Assembly (NCBI GenBank): GCA_010093745.1
Contig: MU005967.1
Location: 248,001 to 312,000 of the forward strand
Reading direction: 5' to 3'
DNA: 64,000 bases
Origin: Piedraia hortae CBS 480.64
Lineage: Eukaryota
A program made the translations under genes and the position numbers. Shown piece after piece: positions 5,696 through 25,245 of the stretch (position 1 is its first letter; the number at the start of each line of letters is the position of its first letter). Below the pieces are notes generated by a model. It was not told the DNA's origin. It saw only the letters and a list, made by a program, of their open reading frames with translations, and did not search any database.

Positions 5696-8600
5696 ATGCC
5701 ACCGAAGCATCGCGATGGCGATGTCGTCGCGACTGTCTGTCCCTACATCCTTTGACGATGTTGTTTTTACTGATAATTTCATAGATTCCAGGTCAATGGA
5801 TCACCTACGCACATACGTTTTCTGCTTACCTTGCCTTCCTCGGCGCCCTCATCGTCGGCACGTCCCTGCATTACCATAAGATTGTCGAGAACGAGCATTT
5901 CGGCTATCCAGTCGAATGGTTCCCGTCCGTGTCTGCCACAATTGGAGATCGATACCCCGAACGATCCGTCTTTCAGATCTTCATTGCGTTGACGTCTGGT
6001 CCGAGATTTTTGTTGATCTTCTTGTTTTATTGTCTTGTTAATCGGCCGGAGCAGAAGCTGCCAAAGGCTATTGCGATTGTTGGGATCATCAGGACGGTTA
6101 CGTGTGGTGGGTGGACGTATGTTACGTCAACGGATGACCATGACTGGCACGATGTGTTCATGATCGGGTACCTTGTTGCGACTTTACCATGGACCCTGGG
6201 GTGTCTCTTCCTCAGCCCGCCGAATCCAGTGACGATCAAGTATAGGAAGTGGCTTGCTGGTTCGTTTTTTGGGACGCTCGTACCGCTTATCTACTTTTTT
6301 ATTCAGCATAAGGTTAACCGCGTGCCGGGTGGTGAGTTTTGTGCGCAAGAAGGATGGGTTTTTGTTGACGAGAATAGCTTACACGATTTATGCGTTTTTT
6401 GAATGGAGTCTTGTACTCCTCGACGTCGCATTTGATGCGGTCACGGCCTATGATTTTTCCACCTTTGAGATCGTCGTCAGGGATGTCAAGGGCTTGAGTA
6501 AAGGGTACGTCTCGTTGCTCCCAAAATGGCAGACGGTAGGCCCTATTCTGTGGTAGAATGCACAACTGACAGCTGACGAATCTAGGCATAATAAACGCGT
6601 GCAAGACGCTGTGCTGGAGAAGCAAAAGGATAAGCCTGTGGGTATGGTGTTCGGCCCCAAGTTCAATGCCGATGACATGCTCGATGCCTTAGCCGATACG
6701 TATGTTGGCTTTGTGTTCTGGTCCATCTTGACCTCGCTCGGAGTCGTTGTGTGGTATTTCCCATTGTGGTATATGGGAATATCCGGCTTCGAGGTGGCTG
6801 TTATGTCGACCATTTCGCCTTTCCTGCTGGAGGTTCCACCCTTTCGACGCTTGGTCTTGAAATATTGGCCCGTGTCGCACTTGCTAATGGGCGTTGCCGG
6901 TCTGTTGGCTTATCTGGTGCAGACACCAAAGTACCGTCTTGGTGTGGTAAGTCTTGCCGTCTGGGAGGGCTGTTTGGGCTATGCTACGACATGGTATCGA
7001 GACCGTCGTGATCCGACCAAGCTGGAGTCGAGGATAAATGCCTGGGTTATTGGTCTCATTGCGAGTTCCATTGCAAAGTTTGCACTGTGGACCAACAACC
7101 CCATCTGGCCAGTCATGCATGCCGAAAACGGTGGATGGAATAGGACTGGACTTGCTCTGTTTGCATTGGCAATTGTGCGGCTCTATATGCGTAGGCCGAC
7201 CATGGCTGCTGATGCTTCGGTGCAAGGCACGCTTGGGGACAAGCCAAAAGGCCTCTGTGTCTTTGCGGCGCTTGGCTTGGGCGGACTGTTCTTCGGCCTG
7301 CACTCTTTGCTCAGTGATTCAAGTACGATGATTCTCTGGGTGTGGGAAGGATATCCCGTTCGTGGTCCTTTGGCTGTTCCACATGGAGCGGTGACCATCC
7401 TTGCTATGGGTGTCGGACTGGTGTTTGGTCTTTTCTACCCAAATCTCACTCGCAGCTGGACAGCATTCGGCATGGGCTCAGTTGGAGCCGCGTTGTTGAC
7501 CGGTTTCAGTCACTGGACCGGATATTATGGCGCCATTGCCTTGTCAGTGTACCTCTGCGCCATGGCCCCCGTGTTGATCAGCAATGCAGTACGTTATCCG
7601 CCTGGCCGGACGTTCTTGATGGCCTTCCTCATCTACAACTTCATGGTCCTCTTCCATGTCTGGGTCGTTGCCTACGCTTTTGTACCAGGAGGTCCTCTCG
7701 TACGAGAACACACTGACTGGATCATGGCACTCATGATGATCTTGATTGGCTGCGGCGTTTACTCCACCTTGGAGAACCACGGCTTGGTTTCCGGTCCAAC
7801 CATCAAAGGCAAAACGTTCCAGCCTCCGTCGAATCCGGCAGCGAAGAAGCAGAGGAGTTATTACATTTACATCCTCTTCGCGTTGCAGTTGCTCTCAGCC
7901 AGCATCGCCTATCTTCGCTTTCCCACTTACAATTACGAGCCGTACCACAAGAACAGCAAACTCATCACTGCGGGAATCTGGACAATTCATTTTAGCATCG
8001 ACAACGACATGTGGTCATCGGAGCGCCGAATGGAGGCCTTATTACGCGAAGCAGAAGTCGATGTGGTGGGATTGTTAGAGAGCGACCTCCAACGAATCAT
8101 CATGGGCAACCGCGACACAACACAATACCTCGCAGATTCTCTAGGCATGTGGGTAGATTACGGTCCAGGGCCAAACAAGCACACTTGGGGCGCAGCATTG
8201 CTGTCCAAGTTCCCGATTGTAAACTCGACCCACCACTTACTCCCCTCGCCAGTCGGCGAACTTGCGCCAGCCATCCACGCAACTATTGACGCCTACGGTG
8301 AGCTAGTCGACGTCTTCGTCTTCCACTCAGGCCAGGAAGAAGACCCTGAAGACCGACGTCTCCAAACTGCCTACATGACGGAACTCATGGGTCGCTCAAC
8401 CCGTCCCAGTATCTTGCTAAGCTACCTCGTCACGAAACCCAAAGAGGGGAATTACAACACCTGGGTCAGTCAAAGAAGCGGAATGAAAGACATTGACCCC
8501 ACGGACTGGGACCGCTGGTGTGAGTACATTCTCTACAAGAACCTGCGGAAAACGGGCTATGCCCGTCTCTCTCGCGGGACGATTACAGATACGGAACTGC

Positions 8601-8758
8601 AGGTGGCCAAGTTTGCAGTCGGACCGCCTGAGGGCAAAGGGGAGTTTATCGATGAGAATCAAGTCCCCGATGATATGAGATTTCCGAATCTCTTCAAGGG
8701 TGAGGGTGTCAGGGGACACAGGTATCATGTCTTTGATGCGCCGAGGTATTTCAATTAG
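5696..8758 (+). CDS. CWH43: GPI-anchor lipid remodelase Cwh43 (Frag1/PGAP2-like N-terminus plus C-terminal phosphodiesterase-like domain), multi-exon
   Basis: HYHKIVENEHFGYPVEWFPSVSATIGDRYPERS, GLLESDLQRIIMGNRD, HSGQEEDPEDRRLQ and GVRGHRYHVF motifs. Introns near 5735-5784, 6332-6377 and 6506-6585. Confidence 0.93.
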
Positions 8759-9152
8759 TGTAGAATATTCAGGAAGGTTGTCTCTGGAGAATTTTTCCTC
8801 GCCTTGCTGGACGATCTTATCAACAATTATGCCTCTGGATATACAATACAAGTGGCTGATGCTGGTGGAACAATACAGCCAACGTGCTTGTATCACATCC
8901 AAAAGTCCACTCTCTTAGAAATCCTAATACAGGCACAGGCCGGCAGAATAATCCCTTCCCTTCAACGCTATAGGTCAAACGAATACCATATTCCAGTTCC
9001 AATCGCCCCCCAAGGCGCCGCCACTCATCCTTCCATACGCACACCCTCACCATCTCAAACAGCCATCTCAGCCCTGTGAAAGGCCTAACAACAACAACCG
9101 AGCCCCCACCCAGAATCTTTCACACACTACTCCCCCTCTCACACATGGCCCC

Positions 9153-9634
9153 ATGAAAACCCCCCTCATCCTCCTCCTCCTCCTCCTCTGCTCACCCACC
9201 ATCTCCAAAATTGGCGACCCATGCAAAGGCTTCAACTTCCCCGGGACCTGCCAACACATCTCCCAATGCGAATCGGTATTTGCACCCTCCCCCATCAATC
9301 CAATTTCCCCCCTTTCTCAAAAACTGTTTCGTCAACCTCACCTCCCCTAGCCCTCCTCAAAACTACCCACCCCTCTCTCAACATAGATAGTAGCCTTGTA
9401 GGATTCACATCAAACAATTCCTGTCCCCACGATCCGGAGTATGTGAAATGCCGTCTCGCAGCGAATTGTCATTCGGGCGAAGTGCAAGGACGGTGTAAGT
9501 TTCTGGAGAGAGGTTGTCCTATGGAGTTTCAGACTGGACTTTTTCCGGGTCCGGAGAATGTGATGTGTTGTTTACATACGAGGTTTGAAATTGATTGGGA
9601 GAGGGAGAGTGGAAATGGGGAAAATATATCTTAA
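9153..9634 (+). CDS. Small secreted cysteine-rich protein (two-exon model or decaying gene)
   Basis: Signal peptide plus GDPC..GTCQ..SQC in one frame, and CPHDP..VKC..C..GRC..C..PGP..VMCC in another. A clean in-phase splice could not be identified. Confidence 0.5.
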
Positions 9635-9713
9635 TTTCGATCAGAAAGGGGCCGATATCGTGCTCCACTCCATCTCTCAACAATCTTTTTTTTTTTTTTT
9701 TCAGATCTTCAAA

Positions 9714-11021
9714 TCATTCCACATTTCCTCGCAAATACTGCACCACCACCCTCCCCTCCCACCCCTTCCCTCTCTTCCTATACCTCCTAACCCCCTCAAT
9801 CGTATCCACCTCCTTTTCCTCCATCTCAAAAAACGTAAAATCCCCCCTCGCCCTCCCAACCAACCCCTCCGAAACCTCCTCCCCCGTAACCGAATCCCGC
9901 GAAGCGACAACTTCCAAAACCAGTTCCCGCAACCCACTCCCCCTCGCTCCCTCCAAGAAATCGCAAAGCATCCCTACCACCTCCCCCGAAAGAGTCCTTG
10001 AGGGGATGGAGGTAAGGACCAACCTCCCCACCCCGCGAAGCGTCCCTACTCGAGAGCGATAGCCGATGCGGAGGGTGTTTACCCCCGTCCCGTCAAGGAA
10101 TATAGCAAGGGACCCCAGATCCAGGGCCTGCAGTGCTGACGAGGATATGAGATGCTCCGCGAATTGGGGGGTTATGAGTGTCGAGGCGAGGGAGAGGTGT
10201 GTTATTCCTACTGAGGGGGAGGTTTCTATTTCTAAGGGGGGGAGGGGGGAGGTTGTGAGCGCGTGGGAGAGGGTTTCTTCGAATGAGGAGGGGAGGGGGA
10301 TGGTATTATATCTTGTGGTGAGGCTGTGGGTTAGGAGGAGGGATGCTCCGCGGTCGGTTATGTGGTTGTTGTTCAGGTTGAGGCTGCGAAGGCGGTGGCC
10401 GATGGATTGGCAGAGGGGGGGAATGGAGTTGTCGGTTAGACCGGTGGAGGAGAGATTCAGGATTTGGAGGTGGTGCAGGTGGGCGAGGATGGGAGGGATG
10501 CTTCGCGCTGTGGGTGTGTGAGGGAGGTTTAGGTATAAAAGGTCCGAGCAGAGGGGTAGGAAGGTGGCGAGACTTTGCTCGGTGAGGTTTTGGTTTTGGG
10601 GTAGTGATAGGTAGCGCAGTCGGTTGGGGATTGAGCCTAGAACGAGGACAGTATGGTCTAGATGCGGACTGTCGGGTGGTAGGAGGAGCGATTGTAAATT
10701 GGGGAGATATGTCAAGACTGATTTGAGCCATAATTTAAATAAGTTTTCTTCAAGGCTGTACGGGTCCGCTGCAGGTAGATACAGAGTGTGCGTTTTTTCG
10801 CGAACTACTTGACGCACGGTCGGGAGAATTTGAAGAAATATATTTAGTTTCTCAATGTTTGGGATCAACGGTCGTCCCCAAAGGTGTCGAGTCAACACAT
10901 CATGGAGCCGGCGATTGACGAGGATAGCATGGAGAAGTGTTGGCTGTAAAAGATAAGGCGCAATAAGGCTCCATGGATCGGGATGAACAAGTCTTGCATA
11001 GGACGGTGGCGCAACTTCCAT
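9714..11021 (-). CDS. Leucine-rich repeat protein, possibly F-box/RNI-like
   Basis: N-terminal PWSLIAPYL..LLHAILVNRRLH..LW (F-box-like) and repeated LxxLxL units (LQILNLSSTGLTD, LRSLNLNNNHITD). Confidence 0.75.
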   Translation of the reverse strand: MEVAPPSYARLVHPDPWSLIAPYLLQPTLLHAILVNRRLHDVLTRHLWGRPLIPNIEKLNIFLQILPTVRQVVREKTHTLYLPAADPYSLEENLFKLWLKSVLTYLPNLQSLLLPPDSPHLDHTVLVLGSIPNRLRYLSLPQNQNLTEQSLATFLPLCSDLLYLNLPHTPTARSIPPILAHLHHLQILNLSSTGLTDNSIPPLCQSIGHRLRSLNLNNNHITDRGASLLLTHSLTTRYNTIPLPSSFEETLSHALTTSPLPPLEIETSPSVGITHLSLASTLITPQFAEHLISSSALQALDLGSLAIFLDGTGVNTLRIGYRSRVGTLRGVGRLVLTSIPSRTLSGEVVGMLCDFLEGARGSGLRELVLEVVASRDSVTGEEVSEGLVGRARGDFTFFEMEEKEVDTIEGVRRYRKRGKGWEGRVVVQYLRGNVE

Positions 11022-20048: not shown

Positions 20049-23000
20049 CTAAGGCTCAACCTCGAATCTTAGTCGAACCCCCATGGCTGAGAGCTCAACG
20101 TCGAGATATCTCAGCACACCGGGGACAGCAACAAGCCTAACATCATCTCCCCCAGCCCTCTTTTCACCCTGTCGGTCCATCCAGCAATGGCTCGTTGAAT
20201 CTGTTATACTTGCCGAACGGCTGCACCGTCGACACCTCACATGACCTCCTTCCCGCCGCCGGTTAAACGGGCCCATGCTAGGCTGTACTGACAGAAAACT
20301 GCCACAGCTCCGGCACAGCCAGGCCTTGGTATAGTCGCTACAATTCATCAAGCGGTCCTGTAGCAAGAAAGCTGTGCCGTGAGCCAGTAGCGAGTCACGC
20401 TCCATCTCACCCACACGAATACCGCCTCCCTTTGATCTCCCCTTGATTGGCTGGCCGGTGAGAGGTGTCACAGGCCCAGTTGTGCGCACTTGGAATTTGT
20501 CGTTGACCATGTGCCTCAAACGTTGGTAGTACACCACGCCGATGAACACATCCGCTGCCAACTCTTCGCCCGTAATCCCCGAGTACATCGGCTCATTGCC
20601 GTAGTAGTTGTATCCCGCCGCTCTGAGCTGATGTCCAAAGTACTCAGCCGCCGTCTCCCCTGCCTTATCCTTGAATTTGAAAGGCGTGCAATCCTGAGCC
20701 AAGCCATGCAACGCTCCGGATTTGCCTGCCATCGACTCGATGAACATGCCGATCGTCATACGTGATGGAAACGCATGTGGGTTGATGATTATATCTGGCT
20801 GCATTCCACTCTCCGTGAACGGCATATCAATCGCTGGCCACTTTTGCGAACAAACTCCCTTTTGGCCGTGCCGAGATGAAAATTTGTCGCCAATGACAGG
20901 TTGACGGGGTATTCTGAAGCGAATGATGATTGTCTGACATGGCTCCTTGGTGCCGGTATCATTGCCCACAAGTCTGATATCGTCAATGTATGCCTCTTCA
21001 GAATCCTTGTACTGGTGAAGACGCGTCACACCATCGAGGTTCTCGTAGCCTGCTTGTGGAGTCCACGTTACTGAGTGCGATACGGCAATGATATCGCCCT
21101 CCTTCACTTTGGCACCTACTCGTGCCAGTCCATCATTGTCTATCATCTCCCTCCACCTGTCCTTGATTATGCCCCGAGGGGCAAAGCCGAATACTTGCGA
21201 GATTCCACCCCTTTTTCCTCCACGTCCCTTCTTCTCCTCGAACAAATCAATTTTCTTGGTCTTGTAGATCGTTCCATGGCCGAACCCTCGCTCATGTGAC
21301 GACTTGTTAATGATCATGGCGTCGTCCATGTCGTAGCCCGTATACGCCAACACAGCAACGACGGCATTTGTGCCATTGGGGAAATTATCCAAGCCATACT
21401 CATTGTAAAGAGGCGGTCGAACCACCGGTGTTTGTCCACATTGCAGCTTGTACAACTTGTTGTCTGTACGATACTGCAGTGCAGTGCCAGGCGTGCCCAT
21501 TGTTTGCTTTCCCATCTGACAGTTGCCGGTGTAAAATGGCTTCTGTGCTGCGTCTAGGATCTCGCCATTTATACCGTACTGGATTGTCCTTCGAGCCAAA
21601 AAATTGCCATTGGGTACTGTCAGGCAGTAGACAAAACCATCGTGGCGAGGGTTCTCGTATAGCTCTGGCTTTGGGGTACTCACAGCGAGTCCGCCATTAG
21701 CCAACGTAAATGATACAATCCATCCCGTAGATTTGGCTACGCCGTCCCCTTTGCTGTGTTTGACAGCAATCTTGACTCTCATGTCGGCCAGGTGTCCTAG
21801 CACAGACAAGTCGTGCACCAGTGGGATGGAGTTATCAATCACCCGGATAACTCCACCCGTAATGAGAGGAGTGGCCTGTTTCCCAGAATGCACGCCCTCC
21901 TTGAACAACTTGATCCTCTTCGCGCCCTTAGGTTCAGCAGTGTCCGATCGAACCTTGAAAGACACGTTTGACATGTTATCAGTAATTGCCTTCCCCGCGA
22001 TAATCGCTCGGGCTTGGCTTTGGGATAGTGAATACAGCCAAGGGTAATACATCCAGCGCCGAAGCTTCCACCAGTCGCTGGTTTCCCAGTCAGATGGCGC
22101 GGCCACAGCCGGCTCGTTCTCCGACTTTGTTAGTGCTTGGTAATGAGATGCTCGATAAGTACGGCGCATTGTATCATTTAGAGGATCAAAAGACTGCGGA
22201 CCACGCATCATGGGTAGGAAAAAGTTGTAGATGTCGCGGTTATTGATGGTCCAGGTCTGCTTCTCCCCGGGCCCTGACACGCACGCAGTTTCGACAACAA
22301 AATTGGAAATTCTCGCAGCCAAGCGCTTCAGAATGTCACCAATGCACGCCTGTACGGCGAGCAATCCAGCACATTGGATTATGATGTGCCAAGATTCTTG
22401 TCCCTGGGCATTAGTGGTGTGATTGATCCCGCCTTCACCCATTACCAGACCAACGAATCGACACCAGTCGAGATTGCACGCTTCGTCCTTGATAAAATCT
22501 GCGGGTAGCCAGGGGCAGTCTGTCCACAGGTACATGGCATTGCCGTTGTGTCCGACAGTAGGTATTTTGTGATTGATATGAGTGGTTGCCCCAGACTTAT
22601 GGCTCCATTGGTCTTGGTTCTTGCCAGCATAATTATTGGGTGCGACCAGCTGATTATCCAACATTTGCTGGGTTGTATACGCCCTATAAATCGTTGGTTG
22701 ATCTTTTGTGTTCAGATACCATCGATGGTTCTCGTCACAAACAGCATCCATACTGCCACTCTTGAGCCTGTACAGAGGTCCGTCATGTGGAAAGCGAGTT
22801 GTTCCTTCCACGACATTCCATTGCTGAGTGCCTGTTTGAAGGTTCATTGTCATCACCTGGTCTGTTGTACGTATCTTCGAGAGAGCTTTCCATCCAGTGT
22901 TGGTGAGCACCTCATGATCGACAGACAGGCATTGATACATGTTACGAGGTGACTGGTTGAAGTCCGGAAAAGGCGTCTGATTAGCAACGATTGACAGGAT

Positions 23001-25100
23001 ATTCGTAGGTGCGTATTCGACATGAGTGGTGTCGCCGGATGTAATTTCAGGATCTGTGCATGCAATCGACATGAATGGTTGTTCGAATGGACCCACGAGA
23101 TCTGTCTTGTCCAAGGGAAGATACTTTGCGGGCCTGATCATCCGCGCCGGCGACGAGAACATGTACACACCTGGATATTGGCCACCGTTTGATTCTGGAA
23201 TGTGACCAATCTCGAGGTCCAGCGGCACGCCATGCGTACCTTCTACCTTCCAGTAGCGCAGAGTGTCCGCAATCGTTTTTGCCATTAGCGGCCTGCAGAA
23301 TCCGAGGACTCTGCCATTAAGCTGCACTACCATGTTCTGATCCAACGTATTGGCAGACGTGCTGTCGACACCAAGTTGGGCAACTAGCTGAGGTATGGCG
23401 GATACATCCGATGATTCAGTTACAATCTTGCACTTGTGTGCCAGGTGGTTTAGCAAGCCACATGGTGAGCCGTCCGGCGTATGAACCGGACACAGAAAGC
23501 CCCAGCTTTCGGGCAAAAGCTTACGCACCGTAGTCGTCTTCAGCTGAGCAAAAAAGCTTCCTCGATGGACCATGCGAAAGTGACTGATGAAACGATAAAA
23601 GTTGATCTTCTCTGCCACAACAGTGAAGCCAGTCGTCTGCTGCAAGTCAAGACCACTAGGGCTCACCAGATTACCAGTGGCCAAGAAGTACTCCAAAGCT
23701 TGCCCAAGGTTCTCGTTCACTTTCGGCAGGACTCTGGACAGAAACGCCTTCTCAAACTGTGGGTGCGTCATCGGGACATAGTTGTTTGTTCGTTTCCAAT
23801 CGCGAAGGCTGCCGCCGATTGAGATGAGCCATTCTTCAAGCCGCTCCTTCATAATCATACCGTAGAGTGTACCTGGGAGGAGGATTTCCTGGCTTGAGAC
23901 TGCATCGGGGTTGTCGGTGGCACACTCGCCTTCCACCAAGGCATAAAGCTTCCGGATCATGAAGAGCAACATCTGATATTTGTCATTATCCTTCTTTTCC
24001 GTAATTTCATGATTCCCAAGGTGTGGAAGCACGACTTTTCGCAAGAACTCGGTTCCGGAATCATAATCGCTCATGTCTTCTGGCACGCCCAGCACAATGC
24101 GAAACTTCTCGCCAAGAAATGTGCGGGTTGCGGAGCGGGAATGAAGCTGGTAGTTCTTATACGTCCGCAATAGCAACTCCATTCGATCAGTTACAAATTG
24201 CTTGCGTTCAAGCCCTTCGCCGGTGGTGGATCCCATGATGCCTTCGTAGATCTCACGATCATTCGTGTCCCGCAGGGCCTTGATTATCATCAAAACAGGG
24301 ACGAGGTACTCGTTCTTCCTCCAAGAAAACCTGAAAGTGACGTTCCCATCGCTGAGGTAATGCAGCACGTTCGTTTGAGAAGTTTGGTCAGGACGCACCG
24401 ATCGTATCTGAACACCATACTTTGTGTAAGTTTTCCCACGCTTCTCAAACGAATTCCGCTCAATAGCCATGGGGAAGTTTCGTCGGTTGACTATCAGCAT
24501 TCGGATGAGCTTCTCTACGCCATTGACCACAAAGTAGCCCCCTAACTCTTCAGTCTCTTCTTTCCGGACCACAAGCTGCCTAGGCGACAGGCCCTGAAGA
24601 TGACATTTATTTGACCGGAGCATGATGGGCACATTACCCAACTCACGCTCAATCGTTTTCCAGGCCCCACCATTGACACTGTATTCAAGCCGGCATCTCC
24701 ACCGGCCTCGATAAGTCACAGCCCTCTCTCTGCACTCAGCAGGATAGACATTTCGGTTGTTTGATTCGACCATGTTGGAAGACGGAAGTACACTCTTTCC
24801 AAGCGAGACTTCTTTTATTCGCACCTGCAACCTGTTGTGTCGCCAATCCGCGTTCTCCTTGTATGGGTCGCCATCCAGAAAAGTCTTAGTTCCAATATCT
24901 TTGATTGAGTGCTCGATCTGGCCACCGGGTGCGAATATTGCATTGAACGAGTCTACATGTGGGCCAATGGCTTCCAATAATGCTGGATATGCGCTTTCAT
25001 TTGGGGGATTTCGGAAAAGTTTTTGACGGCGAGTAGTATCATATTCTGCCGTCCATTTGGGGTGATGAGGCGCTGAATTTTGCGGCCTAGATTGCACCAT
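20049..25100 (-). CDS. RPA135: RNA polymerase I second-largest subunit (Rpa135) precursor containing an intein; intronless
   Basis: Pol I-type motifs YPAECRER, TFRFSWRKNEYLVP, VRKLLPESWGFLCPVHTPDGSPCGLLNHL, YTGYDMDDAMIINKS, GDKFSSRHGQKG and GGIRVGEMERD. About 1680 aa, or about 1210 aa without the insert. Confidence 0.97.
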   Translation of the reverse strand: MVQSRPQNSAPHHPKWTAEYDTTRRQKLFRNPPNESAYPALLEAIGPHVDSFNAIFAPGGQIEHSIKDIGTKTFLDGDPYKENADWRHNRLQVRIKEVSLGKSVLPSSNMVESNNRNVYPAECRERAVTYRGRWRCRLEYSVNGGAWKTIERELGNVPIMLRSNKCHLQGLSPRQLVVRKEETEELGGYFVVNGVEKLIRMLIVNRRNFPMAIERNSFEKRGKTYTKYGVQIRSVRPDQTSQTNVLHYLSDGNVTFRFSWRKNEYLVPVLMIIKALRDTNDREIYEGIMGSTTGEGLERKQFVTDRMELLLRTYKNYQLHSRSATRTFLGEKFRIVLGVPEDMSDYDSGTEFLRKVVLPHLGNHEITEKKDNDKYQMLLFMIRKLYALVEGECATDNPDAVSSQEILLPGTLYGMIMKERLEEWLISIGGSLRDWKRTNNYVPMTHPQFEKAFLSRVLPKVNENLGQALEYFLATGNLVSPSGLDLQQTTGFTVVAEKINFYRFISHFRMVHRGSFFAQLKTTTVRKLLPESWGFLCPVHTPDGSPCGLLNHLAHKCKIVTESSDVSAIPQLVAQLGVDSTSANTLDQNMVVQLNGRVLGFCRPLMAKTIADTLRYWKVEGTHGVPLDLEIGHIPESNGGQYPGVYMFSSPARMIRPAKYLPLDKTDLVGPFEQPFMSIACTDPEITSGDTTHVEYAPTNILSIVANQTPFPDFNQSPRNMYQCLSVDHEVLTNTGWKALSKIRTTDQVMTMNLQTGTQQWNVVEGTTRFPHDGPLYRLKSGSMDAVCDENHRWYLNTKDQPTIYRAYTTQQMLDNQLVAPNNYAGKNQDQWSHKSGATTHINHKIPTVGHNGNAMYLWTDCPWLPADFIKDEACNLDWCRFVGLVMGEGGINHTTNAQGQESWHIIIQCAGLLAVQACIGDILKRLAARISNFVVETACVSGPGEKQTWTINNRDIYNFFLPMMRGPQSFDPLNDTMRRTYRASHYQALTKSENEPAVAAPSDWETSDWWKLRRWMYYPWLYSLSQSQARAIIAGKAITDNMSNVSFKVRSDTAEPKGAKRIKLFKEGVHSGKQATPLITGGVIRVIDNSIPLVHDLSVLGHLADMRVKIAVKHSKGDGVAKSTGWIVSFTLANGGLAVSTPKPELYENPRHDGFVYCLTVPNGNFLARRTIQYGINGEILDAAQKPFYTGNCQMGKQTMGTPGTALQYRTDNKLYKLQCGQTPVVRPPLYNEYGLDNFPNGTNAVVAVLAYTGYDMDDAMIINKSSHERGFGHGTIYKTKKIDLFEEKKGRGGKRGGISQVFGFAPRGIIKDRWREMIDNDGLARVGAKVKEGDIIAVSHSVTWTPQAGYENLDGVTRLHQYKDSEEAYIDDIRLVGNDTGTKEPCQTIIIRFRIPRQPVIGDKFSSRHGQKGVCSQKWPAIDMPFTESGMQPDIIINPHAFPSRMTIGMFIESMAGKSGALHGLAQDCTPFKFKDKAGETAAEYFGHQLRAAGYNYYGNEPMYSGITGEELAADVFIGVVYYQRLRHMVNDKFQVRTTGPVTPLTGQPIKGRSKGGGIRVGEMERDSLLAHGTAFLLQDRLMNCSDYTKAWLCRSCGSFLSVQPSMGPFNRRREGGHVRCRRCSRSASITDSTSHCWMDRQGEKRAGGDDVRLVAVPGVLRYLDVELSAMGVRLRFEVEP
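21522..22931 (-). mobile_element. Intein, 470 aa, with a LAGLIDADG-type homing endonuclease region
   Basis: In-frame 1410-nt insert splitting NQSPRNMYQ|CQMGKQ. Begins CLSVDHEVLTNTGWK (block A), has CDENHRW (block B), FVGLVMGEG (block C) and VYCLTVPNGNFLAR (block F), and ends YTGN before extein Cys+1. Confidence 0.95.
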
Positions 25101-25245
25101 GTTGTGCAAGAATAACTATCGTTATTCTGGTCCGGACAGAATTTTGGGGGAAAAAGTTGAGTGACAGCGGGACAACCCGACACTAGCCAGAACAAGAAGT
25201 GGGCAACATCCATCTGATGACCTTGATGGTCTTCACTCCAACACA

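Follow-up and report, generated by a model that had tools for sequence, protein, structure and literature searches.

Which residue starts protein splicing in an intein that has both a cysteine at its first position and the Trp-Cys-Thr (WCT) triplet of class 3 inteins? The question is raised by a 64,000-nucleotide stretch of Piedraia hortae CBS 480.64 (assembly GCA_010093745.1, contig MU005967.1, positions 248,001 to 312,000 of the forward strand; hereafter the window, whose own numbering is used throughout), in which the gene for the RNA polymerase I (Pol I) subunit RPA2 is interrupted by an intein. An earlier note on this DNA had pointed out that the intein combines the splicing signatures of class 1 with those of class 3, and had proposed that it might use either or both mechanisms, be an evolutionary intermediate or be redox-sensitive. 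We confirmed the observation, while the interpretation was only partly supported; the idea of an exceptional intein, or of a link to class 3, found no support. The intein is a newly seen member of the RPA2-a allele, first described as Pno RPA2 in 2006, and belongs to a large, little-studied group that we refer to as the Cys1/Cys-F:4/Gly-G:6 clade, a working name of the present analysis. On balance the intein appears to be Cys1-initiated with a convergent class-3-like triad, and its Trp-Cys-Thr match to class 3 is most probably due to convergence or a clade-level habit, not to shared descent.

The intein was located in a minus-strand open frame (20049..25109, first ATG at 25100) that encodes RPA2, with the Pfam domains RNA_pol_Rpb2_6 (E 6.3e-122) and RNA_pol_Rpa2_4 (E 1.1e-25). 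An in-frame insert of 470 residues splits the conserved RPA2 motif between NQSPRNMYQ and CQMGKQTMG and interrupts the Pfam Rpb2_6 domain. The open frame is identical to the public P. hortae CBS 480.64 RPA2 protein (P0003), save for a 26-residue stretch. The features of the locus are as follows:

20049..25100, minus strand: RPA2 gene, from the open frame, Pfam and identity to P0003.
22932..25100, minus strand: N-extein, ending in NQSPRNMYQ, from the translated frame.
21522..22931, minus strand: intein of 470 residues, Cys1 to Asn470, from its junctions, an AlphaFold2 model and Foldseek.
22893..22931, minus strand: block A, CLSVDHEVLTNTG, with Cys1 at 22929-22931 and His6, which is invariant in the family.
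22713..22754, minus strand: block B, SMDAVCDENHRWYL, with Asp66 (B:7), His69 (B:10) and Trp71 (B:12).
21747..22514, minus strand: LAGLIDADG homing-endonuclease domain, approximate limits residues 140-395, from secondary structure, matches to I-DmoI and PI-SceI, and motif alignment.
22428-22460, minus strand: LAGLIDADG motif 1, RFVGLVMGEGG, from the family alignment.
21975-22013, minus strand: LAGLIDADG motif 2, ARAIIAGKAITDN, from the family alignment.
21876..21953, minus strand: 78 nucleotides, intein residues 327-352, a low-confidence loop that is a GT..AG 'intron' in the public gene model.
21588..21635, minus strand: block F, FVYCLTVPNGNFLARR, with Cys436 (F:4) at 21624-21626 and the invariant Arg447-Arg448.
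21534..21593, minus strand: extended F-G spacer, RRTIQYGINGEILDAAQKPF, residues 447-466, about 13 residues above most relatives.
21522..21542, minus strand: block G, KPFYTGN, with Thr468 (G:5), Gly469 (G:6) and Asn470 (G:7).
20049..21521, minus strand: C-extein, starting with Cys+1 (21519-21521) in CQMGKQTMG.

The marks expected of an intein are present: Cys1, His69 at B:10, the C-terminal Asn470 and a nucleophile, Cys, at +1. An AlphaFold2 model of the intein, built from 37 sequences (mean predicted local distance difference test score, pLDDT, 85.2; predicted template modelling score 0.88), shows a HINT splicing domain interrupted by a LAGLIDADG endonuclease. The best Foldseek matches of the model were LAGLIDADG-bearing inteins, namely TliVMA (7qsu, E 2.4e-9), PI-SceI and PI-PfuI, and I-DmoI was matched as well. 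The Pfam Intein_splicing profile scored the intein at 15.2 bits, below its cut-off of 35.8, and a whole-intein sequence search of solved structures gave weak matches (E 0.0075) between residues 4-42 and the block B region of the Mtu RecA intein, which were of no help for block assignment. The catalytic residues kept in an essential gene predict that the intein splices.

Each signature residue was found in the translated frame at the position that the earlier note had claimed, including Cys1, Asp66, His69, Trp71, Cys436, Thr468, Gly469, Asn470 and Cys+1; CDENHRW spans residues 65-71, VYCLTV residues 434-439 and YTGN residues 467-470. In a MAFFT alignment of 211 splicing domains, His69, Trp71, Cys436, Thr468, Gly469 and Asn470 share columns with His65, Trp67, Cys320, Thr339, His340 and Asn341, respectively, of the phage Bethlehem class 3 prototype, for which the B:10, B:12, F:4 and G:5-G:7 numbering has been published (PMC2807308). 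Because the residues occupy the same columns as those of the prototype, the assignment to B:12, F:4 and G:5 is right, and Cys1 coexists with the full triplet, with Asp at B:7 and Gly at G:6. The extended F-G spacer is also real: F:4 to G:7 spans 34 residues, compared to 21 in 94 of 107 relatives and in the class 3 prototype. The range that the earlier note gave for its observation, 21522-22736, starts at block B, and the start of the intein is at 22931.

We examined whether the signature is peculiar to the window with an intein-restricted homologue search, which yielded 36 proteins at E <= 0.001 among 3465 candidates. The resulting family has 37 members with that of the window, and both junctions are available in 35 (P0010 is incomplete at the N-terminus, P0025 at the C-terminus). 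All 35 inteins interrupt the same motif, in 21 RPA2, 6 RPC2 and 8 RPB2 proteins, from hosts that include Dothideomycetes, Coemansia, Tilletia and Sorochytrium. Without exception the 35 share Cys1, His B:10, Trp B:12, Cys F:4, Thr G:5, Gly G:6 and Asn G:7, down to about 28% identity. The invariance of these seven residues indicates that the signature matters and exceeds chance. The +1 residue is set by the host paralogue (Cys in 27, Ser in 8). His6 of block A and Arg447 and Arg448 after block F are likewise invariant, in 37/37 aligned sequences (alignment A1 positions 11, 452 and 453).

The combination that had seemed special to the window is therefore a family trait of a known allele. The intein of Parastagonospora nodorum (P0009) is 61% identical over the intein (E 2.9e-192), and Pno RPA2, described from the same species as Phaeosphaeria nodorum (Goodwin, Butler & Poulter 2006, PMC1635734), occupies the same host gene and insertion site and has the same Cys1, Cys+1, Gly-Asn end and LAGLIDADG domain, the latter described as possibly degenerate. 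Its length is 455/456 residues (PMC1635734), compared to 470 in P. hortae, and Trp B:12, Cys F:4 and Thr G:5 go unmentioned in the accessible part of that text. The Ceu ClpP chloroplast and Candida ThrRS inteins share the Gly-Asn terminus, a comparison made here by description only, and fall in the same 99%-supported cluster as Pno RPA2 (PMC1635734). The homologous site NQSPRNxYQ/(C/S)xMGKQ of all three nuclear RNA polymerases is thus occupied by one intein family across several fungal phyla (P0004-P0038); the occupancy of the Pol I, II and III sites looks like spread between paralogous genes. One RPB2 protein (P0038) has, in addition to the family intein, a second, standard intein near its C-terminus (residues 1559-2066), which starts with Cys1 and ends in THN before a Cys.

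The wider relationships were analyzed with a phmmer search of the window intein against 1.84 billion representatives, which returned 867 matches at E <= 0.001. From the best 150 of these, 107 inteins were paired, their N- and C-terminal splicing parts being found with family hidden Markov models (HMMs). Among the 107, F:4 is Cys in 106 and Asp in one, and Gly occupies G:6 in 100. Cys stands at residue 1 in 92; the remaining 15 are unaligned there, and no other residue was aligned. The window intein has the clade marks, namely Cys1, Cys F:4, Gly G:6 and Asn G:7. Its nearest relatives outside the family occur in eukaryote-like hosts (Rpb2, SNF2, UCH, PUF and mevalonate diphosphate decarboxylase). 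By projection, 227 of 241 N-domain matches start with Cys, 4 are truncated and 10 are non-Cys; in three of these 10 a Cys lies one or two residues upstream, and a further one, in P0118, is Pro-first and class-3-looking. The P0118 intein, listed at residue 319, has DHW in block B and lies beside a Cys1 clade intein. Asp, the ordinary class 1 residue, accompanies Cys1 at F:4 in two clade members, P0144 and P0163, the end of the latter being unpaired.

Of the other signature positions in the clade, B:7 is Thr in 90/90 relatives, G:5 is Thr in 52/107, and B:12 is Met in 51 and Trp in 22. The full triplet is present in 18 of the 107, 16 of which have an aligned Cys1, so that WCT alone is not diagnostic of class 3. 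Outside the fungi, inteins with WCT and Cys1 were found in phage proteins, SPP1-type portal proteins among them. Thr G:5 accompanies Trp B:12 in 18 of 22 inteins, compared to 34 of 85 others (18/4 vs 34/51, Fisher p 6e-4, kinship ignored); this co-occurrence within Cys1 inteins suggests that B:12 and G:5 are structurally coupled whatever residue 1 is.

For comparison with class 3, we collected 149 intein instances from 121 proteins, all related to one prototype, 'MP-Be DnaB' (AY500153 gene 11, P0190 residues 141-481). The residues of the prototype (Pro1, Ser62, His65, Trp67, Cys320, Thr339, His340, Asn341 and Thr+1) agree in number with the published ones (PMC2807308). Residue 1 is Pro in 104 of the 149 and unaligned in 45; Trp B:12 is present in 147, Cys F:4 in 149, Thr G:5 in 148 and His G:6 in 142. 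The +1 residue is Thr in 118 and unaligned in 31, and B:7 is Ser, Asp, Cys, Thr or Gly. These and other class 3 inteins (MP-Be 'DnaB', also TerL1-c, PMC2807308; Msm DnaBi1, PMC6195587; MchDnaB1, PMC7664689) resemble the window intein in that their Trp B:12, Cys F:4 and Thr G:5, together with His B:10, share its alignment columns, and in a non-Thr B:7, which is Asp in Msm DnaBi1 as in the window. They differ in lacking an N-terminal nucleophile (Pro in the sampled relatives) and in His G:6 and Thr or Ser at +1.

We scored the inteins against profiles from which the nine diagnostic columns had been removed (123 columns kept), with a standard group of six inteins (Asp F:4, His-Asn end) taken from multi-intein proteins. 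The window intein reached 123.6 bits with the clade profile, as opposed to 24.8 with that of class 3 and 47.4 with that of the standard inteins, and the medians of the fungal family (37/37 scored) were 112, 24.8 and 49.9 bits, respectively. Class 3 inteins had a median of 46.8 bits against the standard profile and 16.2 against that of the clade. FastTree nested the family in the clade, with a support of 0.95 for the split between clade plus family and class 3 plus standard inteins; the same split had a starred support of 97 in a 44-row tree. A quick IQ-TREE analysis of 121 rows (LG+C20, posterior mean site frequency model) gave starred sets of 25 rows (23 family and 2 clade, 98) and 52 rows (95), and placed class 3 on one side of a branch with a support of 89. 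An approximately unbiased (AU) test on 44 rows did not reject the union of family and class 3 (log-likelihood difference 12.6, p-AU 0.3), having little power with 123 columns. The tree evidence is therefore suggestive and not final, and most of the argument on descent is carried by the profile scores together with the free trees. These place the family outside class 3, which is the phylogenetic half of what the earlier note had named as counting against its own reading, and show that its overall sequence affinity is with the Cys1/Cys-F:4/Gly-G:6 clade.

One member of this clade has splicing data. The second intein of phage Bethlehem (AY500153 locus tag 52, P0189 residues 95-411, 317 residues) starts with Cys1, reads T-x-x-H-x-V in block B and VWC in block F, and ends in LTGN followed by Ser. 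Its length and the penultimate Gly316 agree with those that Kelley et al. 2016 (PMC5050341) give for the 'Bethlehem gp51 RDF intein', to which we match it. The family N-terminal HMM scored it at 37.5 bits, compared to 9.3 for the class 3 prototype of the same phage, and the C-terminal HMM at 11.1 bits, with no match in the prototype. The RDF intein was treated as class 1, spliced completely in an MBP-intein-GFP reporter and was strongly slowed by G316H, which shows by experiment that fast splicing is possible with a Gly-Asn end and that this end is even preferred (PMC5050341). It shares Cys1, Cys F:4, Thr G:5, Gly G:6 and Asn G:7 with the window intein and is placed in the same clade by HMM and tree; it differs in Thr B:7, Val B:12, Ser+1, an F:4 to G:7 distance of 21 (34 in the window) and a phage host protein. 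Phage Bethlehem therefore has a class 3 intein (gene 11, 'hypothetical protein', 904 codons) beside the Cys1/Cys-F:4/Thr-Gly-Asn intein (locus tag 52, 'phosphoesterase'), in genes that span 7260-9971 on the plus strand (L002) and 7578-9296 on the minus strand (L001); AY500153 gene numbers are one off from those of the papers (gp10, gp51).

The first residue of the window intein is among those of class 1 (Cys, Ser or Thr), while the typical class 1 helpers, which are not strict (TxxH, Asp F:4 and penultimate His), are replaced by DxxH, Cys F:4 and Gly G:6. To our knowledge, class 3 inteins have Ser or Thr at +1, with Bvi IcmO as the one known exception; the window intein has Cys+1. It has the class 3 triplet, and its Cys1 departs from the original definition of that class, which requires no Cys, Ser or Thr at residue 1 (PMC2807308), and from the later selection rule 'no cysteine at the N-end and Cys at C2:4' (PMC7891396). 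Class 3 inteins are monophyletic (PMC3196547, citing Tori & Perler 2011; PMC4031507) and were known only from bacteria and phages before Anaeramoeba (PMC10710043). In class 3 structures, Cys S-gamma and His N-delta are about 5.5 Å apart (PMC7664689). Class 1 inteins with Cys F:4 are on record and polyphyletic (PMC3196547, citing Tori & Perler 2011 for the latter), as are class 1 inteins with a residue other than His at G:6 (PMC5050341), and B:12 of class 1 inteins is a large hydrophobic residue, Trp included (PMC7891396).

We favor a splicing route that begins at Cys1. The invariance of Cys1 predicts a linear thioester at residue 1 as the first step; the acyl group would then be handed to Cys+1, and Asn470 would cyclise without a penultimate His. 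Cys436 would be a conserved active-site residue doing the job of the Asp that ordinary inteins have at F:4, which in the Mtu RecA intein contacts both the Cys1 thiol and the +1 thiol (PMC4031507). Both the penultimate His and the block F His are absent from the window intein, and our guess is that His6 and the invariant Arg447-Arg448 may help Asn470 to cyclise. Three results point to this route: Cys1 never varies in a clade where it could, but is gone from the true class 3 relatives; two Cys1 members have Asp in place of Cys at F:4; and the one clade member with data, the RDF intein, splices well with its native Gly-Asn end.

Several points weigh against a Cys1-initiated route. Cys F:4 varies no more than Cys1 does, in keeping with a chemical role that is essential. 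Beyond the triplet, the family is nearer to class 3 than its relatives are: it has given up Thr at B:7 (Asn in 21, Asp in 9 and Thr in 5 of 35) and fixed Trp and Thr, so that its active site is more class-3-like than that of its relatives, and the class 3 intein Msm DnaBi1 also has DxxH (PMC6195587). The class 1 label of the RDF intein was drawn from sequence, and the accessible part of the report gives no C1A or F:4 mutant (PMC5050341). The class 3 profile represents relatives of a single prototype, the standard group has six members, and the AU test leaves the union with class 3 unrejected. The order of the nucleophiles, that is, which cysteine attacks first, is a point that we infer.

A two-cysteine relay is the alternative that survives best, although we consider it unlikely. 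Here a Cys1 thioester would pass to Cys436, giving a branched intermediate at block F, and only afterwards to the +1 residue, Cys or Ser. Both cysteines would be essential, and the whole clade would combine the chemistry of class 1 with that of class 3. Neither cysteine varies to any real extent (35/35 in the family, F:4 Cys in 106/107 of the clade and no non-Cys residue aligned at position 1), and the class 3 triad of His B:10, Cys F:4 and Thr G:5 is complete in the window intein. In solved inteins F:4 lies between the two scissile bonds (PMC7891396, PMC6195587), and a central thiol could bridge the 8-9 Å that separate the N-scissile bond from the +1 nucleophile in class 1 structures (PMC7664689). 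The Hedgehog HINT domain, a eukaryotic HINT fold like that of the window, requires two cysteines, C1 and C143, with the thioester passing from C1 to the internal one; C143 is, however, the equivalent of the intein +1 residue and not of F:4, the reaction is cholesterol transfer and not splicing (PMC12054796), and the sequences are not closely related. If the two clade members with Asp F:4 and Cys1 are active, part of the clade can do without the thiol. A WCT triplet grafted onto a class 1 intein gave cleavage only and no splicing (PMC7664689), which shows that the triplet alone does not create the chemistry. It is similarly doubtful that the entire clade splices through successive Cys1 and Cys F:4 thioesters; such a fourth, hybrid route would bring a block F branched intermediate to eukaryotic nuclear inteins for the first time, would be independent of the phage class 3 lineage, and its two thiols could act as a redox brake on RNA polymerase maturation.

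A true class 3 mechanism, in which Cys436 would attack the N-terminal peptide bond directly and Cys1 would be a dispensable relic, is quite improbable. The WCT triplet together with a non-Thr B:7 speaks for it. A class 3 start with a dispensable residue 1 has reportedly been described for the Deinococcus radiodurans Snf2 intein, which is reported to be Ser-first. The Dra Snf2 intein is listed among the efficient class 3 inteins (PMC3196547), and 3 of 37 WCT inteins start with Ser or Cys and were under test at the time (PMC2807308). However, drift would be expected at a dispensable position, yet Cys stands at residue 1 in 35/35 of the family and in every aligned case of the 107, whereas class 3 has Pro. 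G:6 is Gly here and His in 142/149 of class 3, and Cys+1 is found in 27/35 of the family as opposed to Thr in class 3. The masked class 3 profile gave the window intein only 24.8 bits, compared to 123.6 for the Cys1 clade, and free trees place class 3 elsewhere.

Least probable of the functional alternatives, though compatible with any mechanism, is a redox switch in which a Cys1-Cys436 or Cys1-Cys+1 disulfide would trap the precursor under oxidative stress and so tie Pol I assembly to the state of the cell. By homology three cysteines share one active site, and there are precedents: under H2O2 the catalytic F:4 Cys118 of Msm DnaBi1 forms a disulfide with Cys48 that reversibly inhibits splicing (PMC6195587), a disulfide that involves Cys1 traps the Pab MoaA intein (PMC10663303), and the Hedgehog C1-C143 disulfide has to be reduced before processing (PMC12054796). 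The argument is purely one of analogy, however; the precursor folds in a reducing cytosol or nucleus, and the sequence does not separate a role in regulation from one in catalysis. Readings of the insert as an intron, or as no more than an inserted domain, were ruled out by the exact intein junctions, the HINT and LAGLIDADG fold and the homologues at the same site in paralogous genes.

The endonuclease domain and the public gene model were also compared with those of relatives. LAGLIDADG motif 1 of the window has Glu (GEGG) where close relatives have Asp (GDGG), and motif 2 has AITDN where relatives have A(V/A)ADG, differences which may mean that the window endonuclease is weakened. The acidic LAGLIDADG residues are wholly lost in the Tilletia RPB2 copies. 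The public gene model (P0003) is without 26 intein residues; the 78 nucleotides removed are in frame, begin with GT and end with AG. Relatives retain homologous residues in this stretch (e.g. AKRIKL), where the AlphaFold2 model has a loop with pLDDT <50. The 'intron' of the public model is probably an annotation artefact.

A literature search for RPA2, intein and Phaeosphaeria returned the 2006 paper alone, and the search for RPA2, intein and fungi added unrelated papers. The term 'RPA2' was not found in the accessible parts of PMC2807308, PMC5222942, PMC4031507, PMC7664689, PMC10710043 and PMC5784728. We found no open text that discusses WCT in fungal polymerase inteins, although Tori & Perler 2011 and supplemental Table 2 of PMC2807308, which lay outside the search, may do so, and no mechanism is assigned to this intein type in the accessible literature.

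The classes of inteins are routinely assigned from sequence signatures, and the present results show that WCT by itself does not identify class 3. If Cys F:4 acts as a nucleophile, a hybrid class would have to be added to the three-class scheme, and these inteins, with two thiols in a compact active site, could be of use in protein engineering or antifungal targeting; if it does not, the window intein is no more than an ordinary addition to an allele already described. In many Dothideomycetes, as in Tilletia, Coemansia and other fungi, three essential polymerases rely on an intein type without the usual Thr B:7, Asp F:4 and penultimate His.

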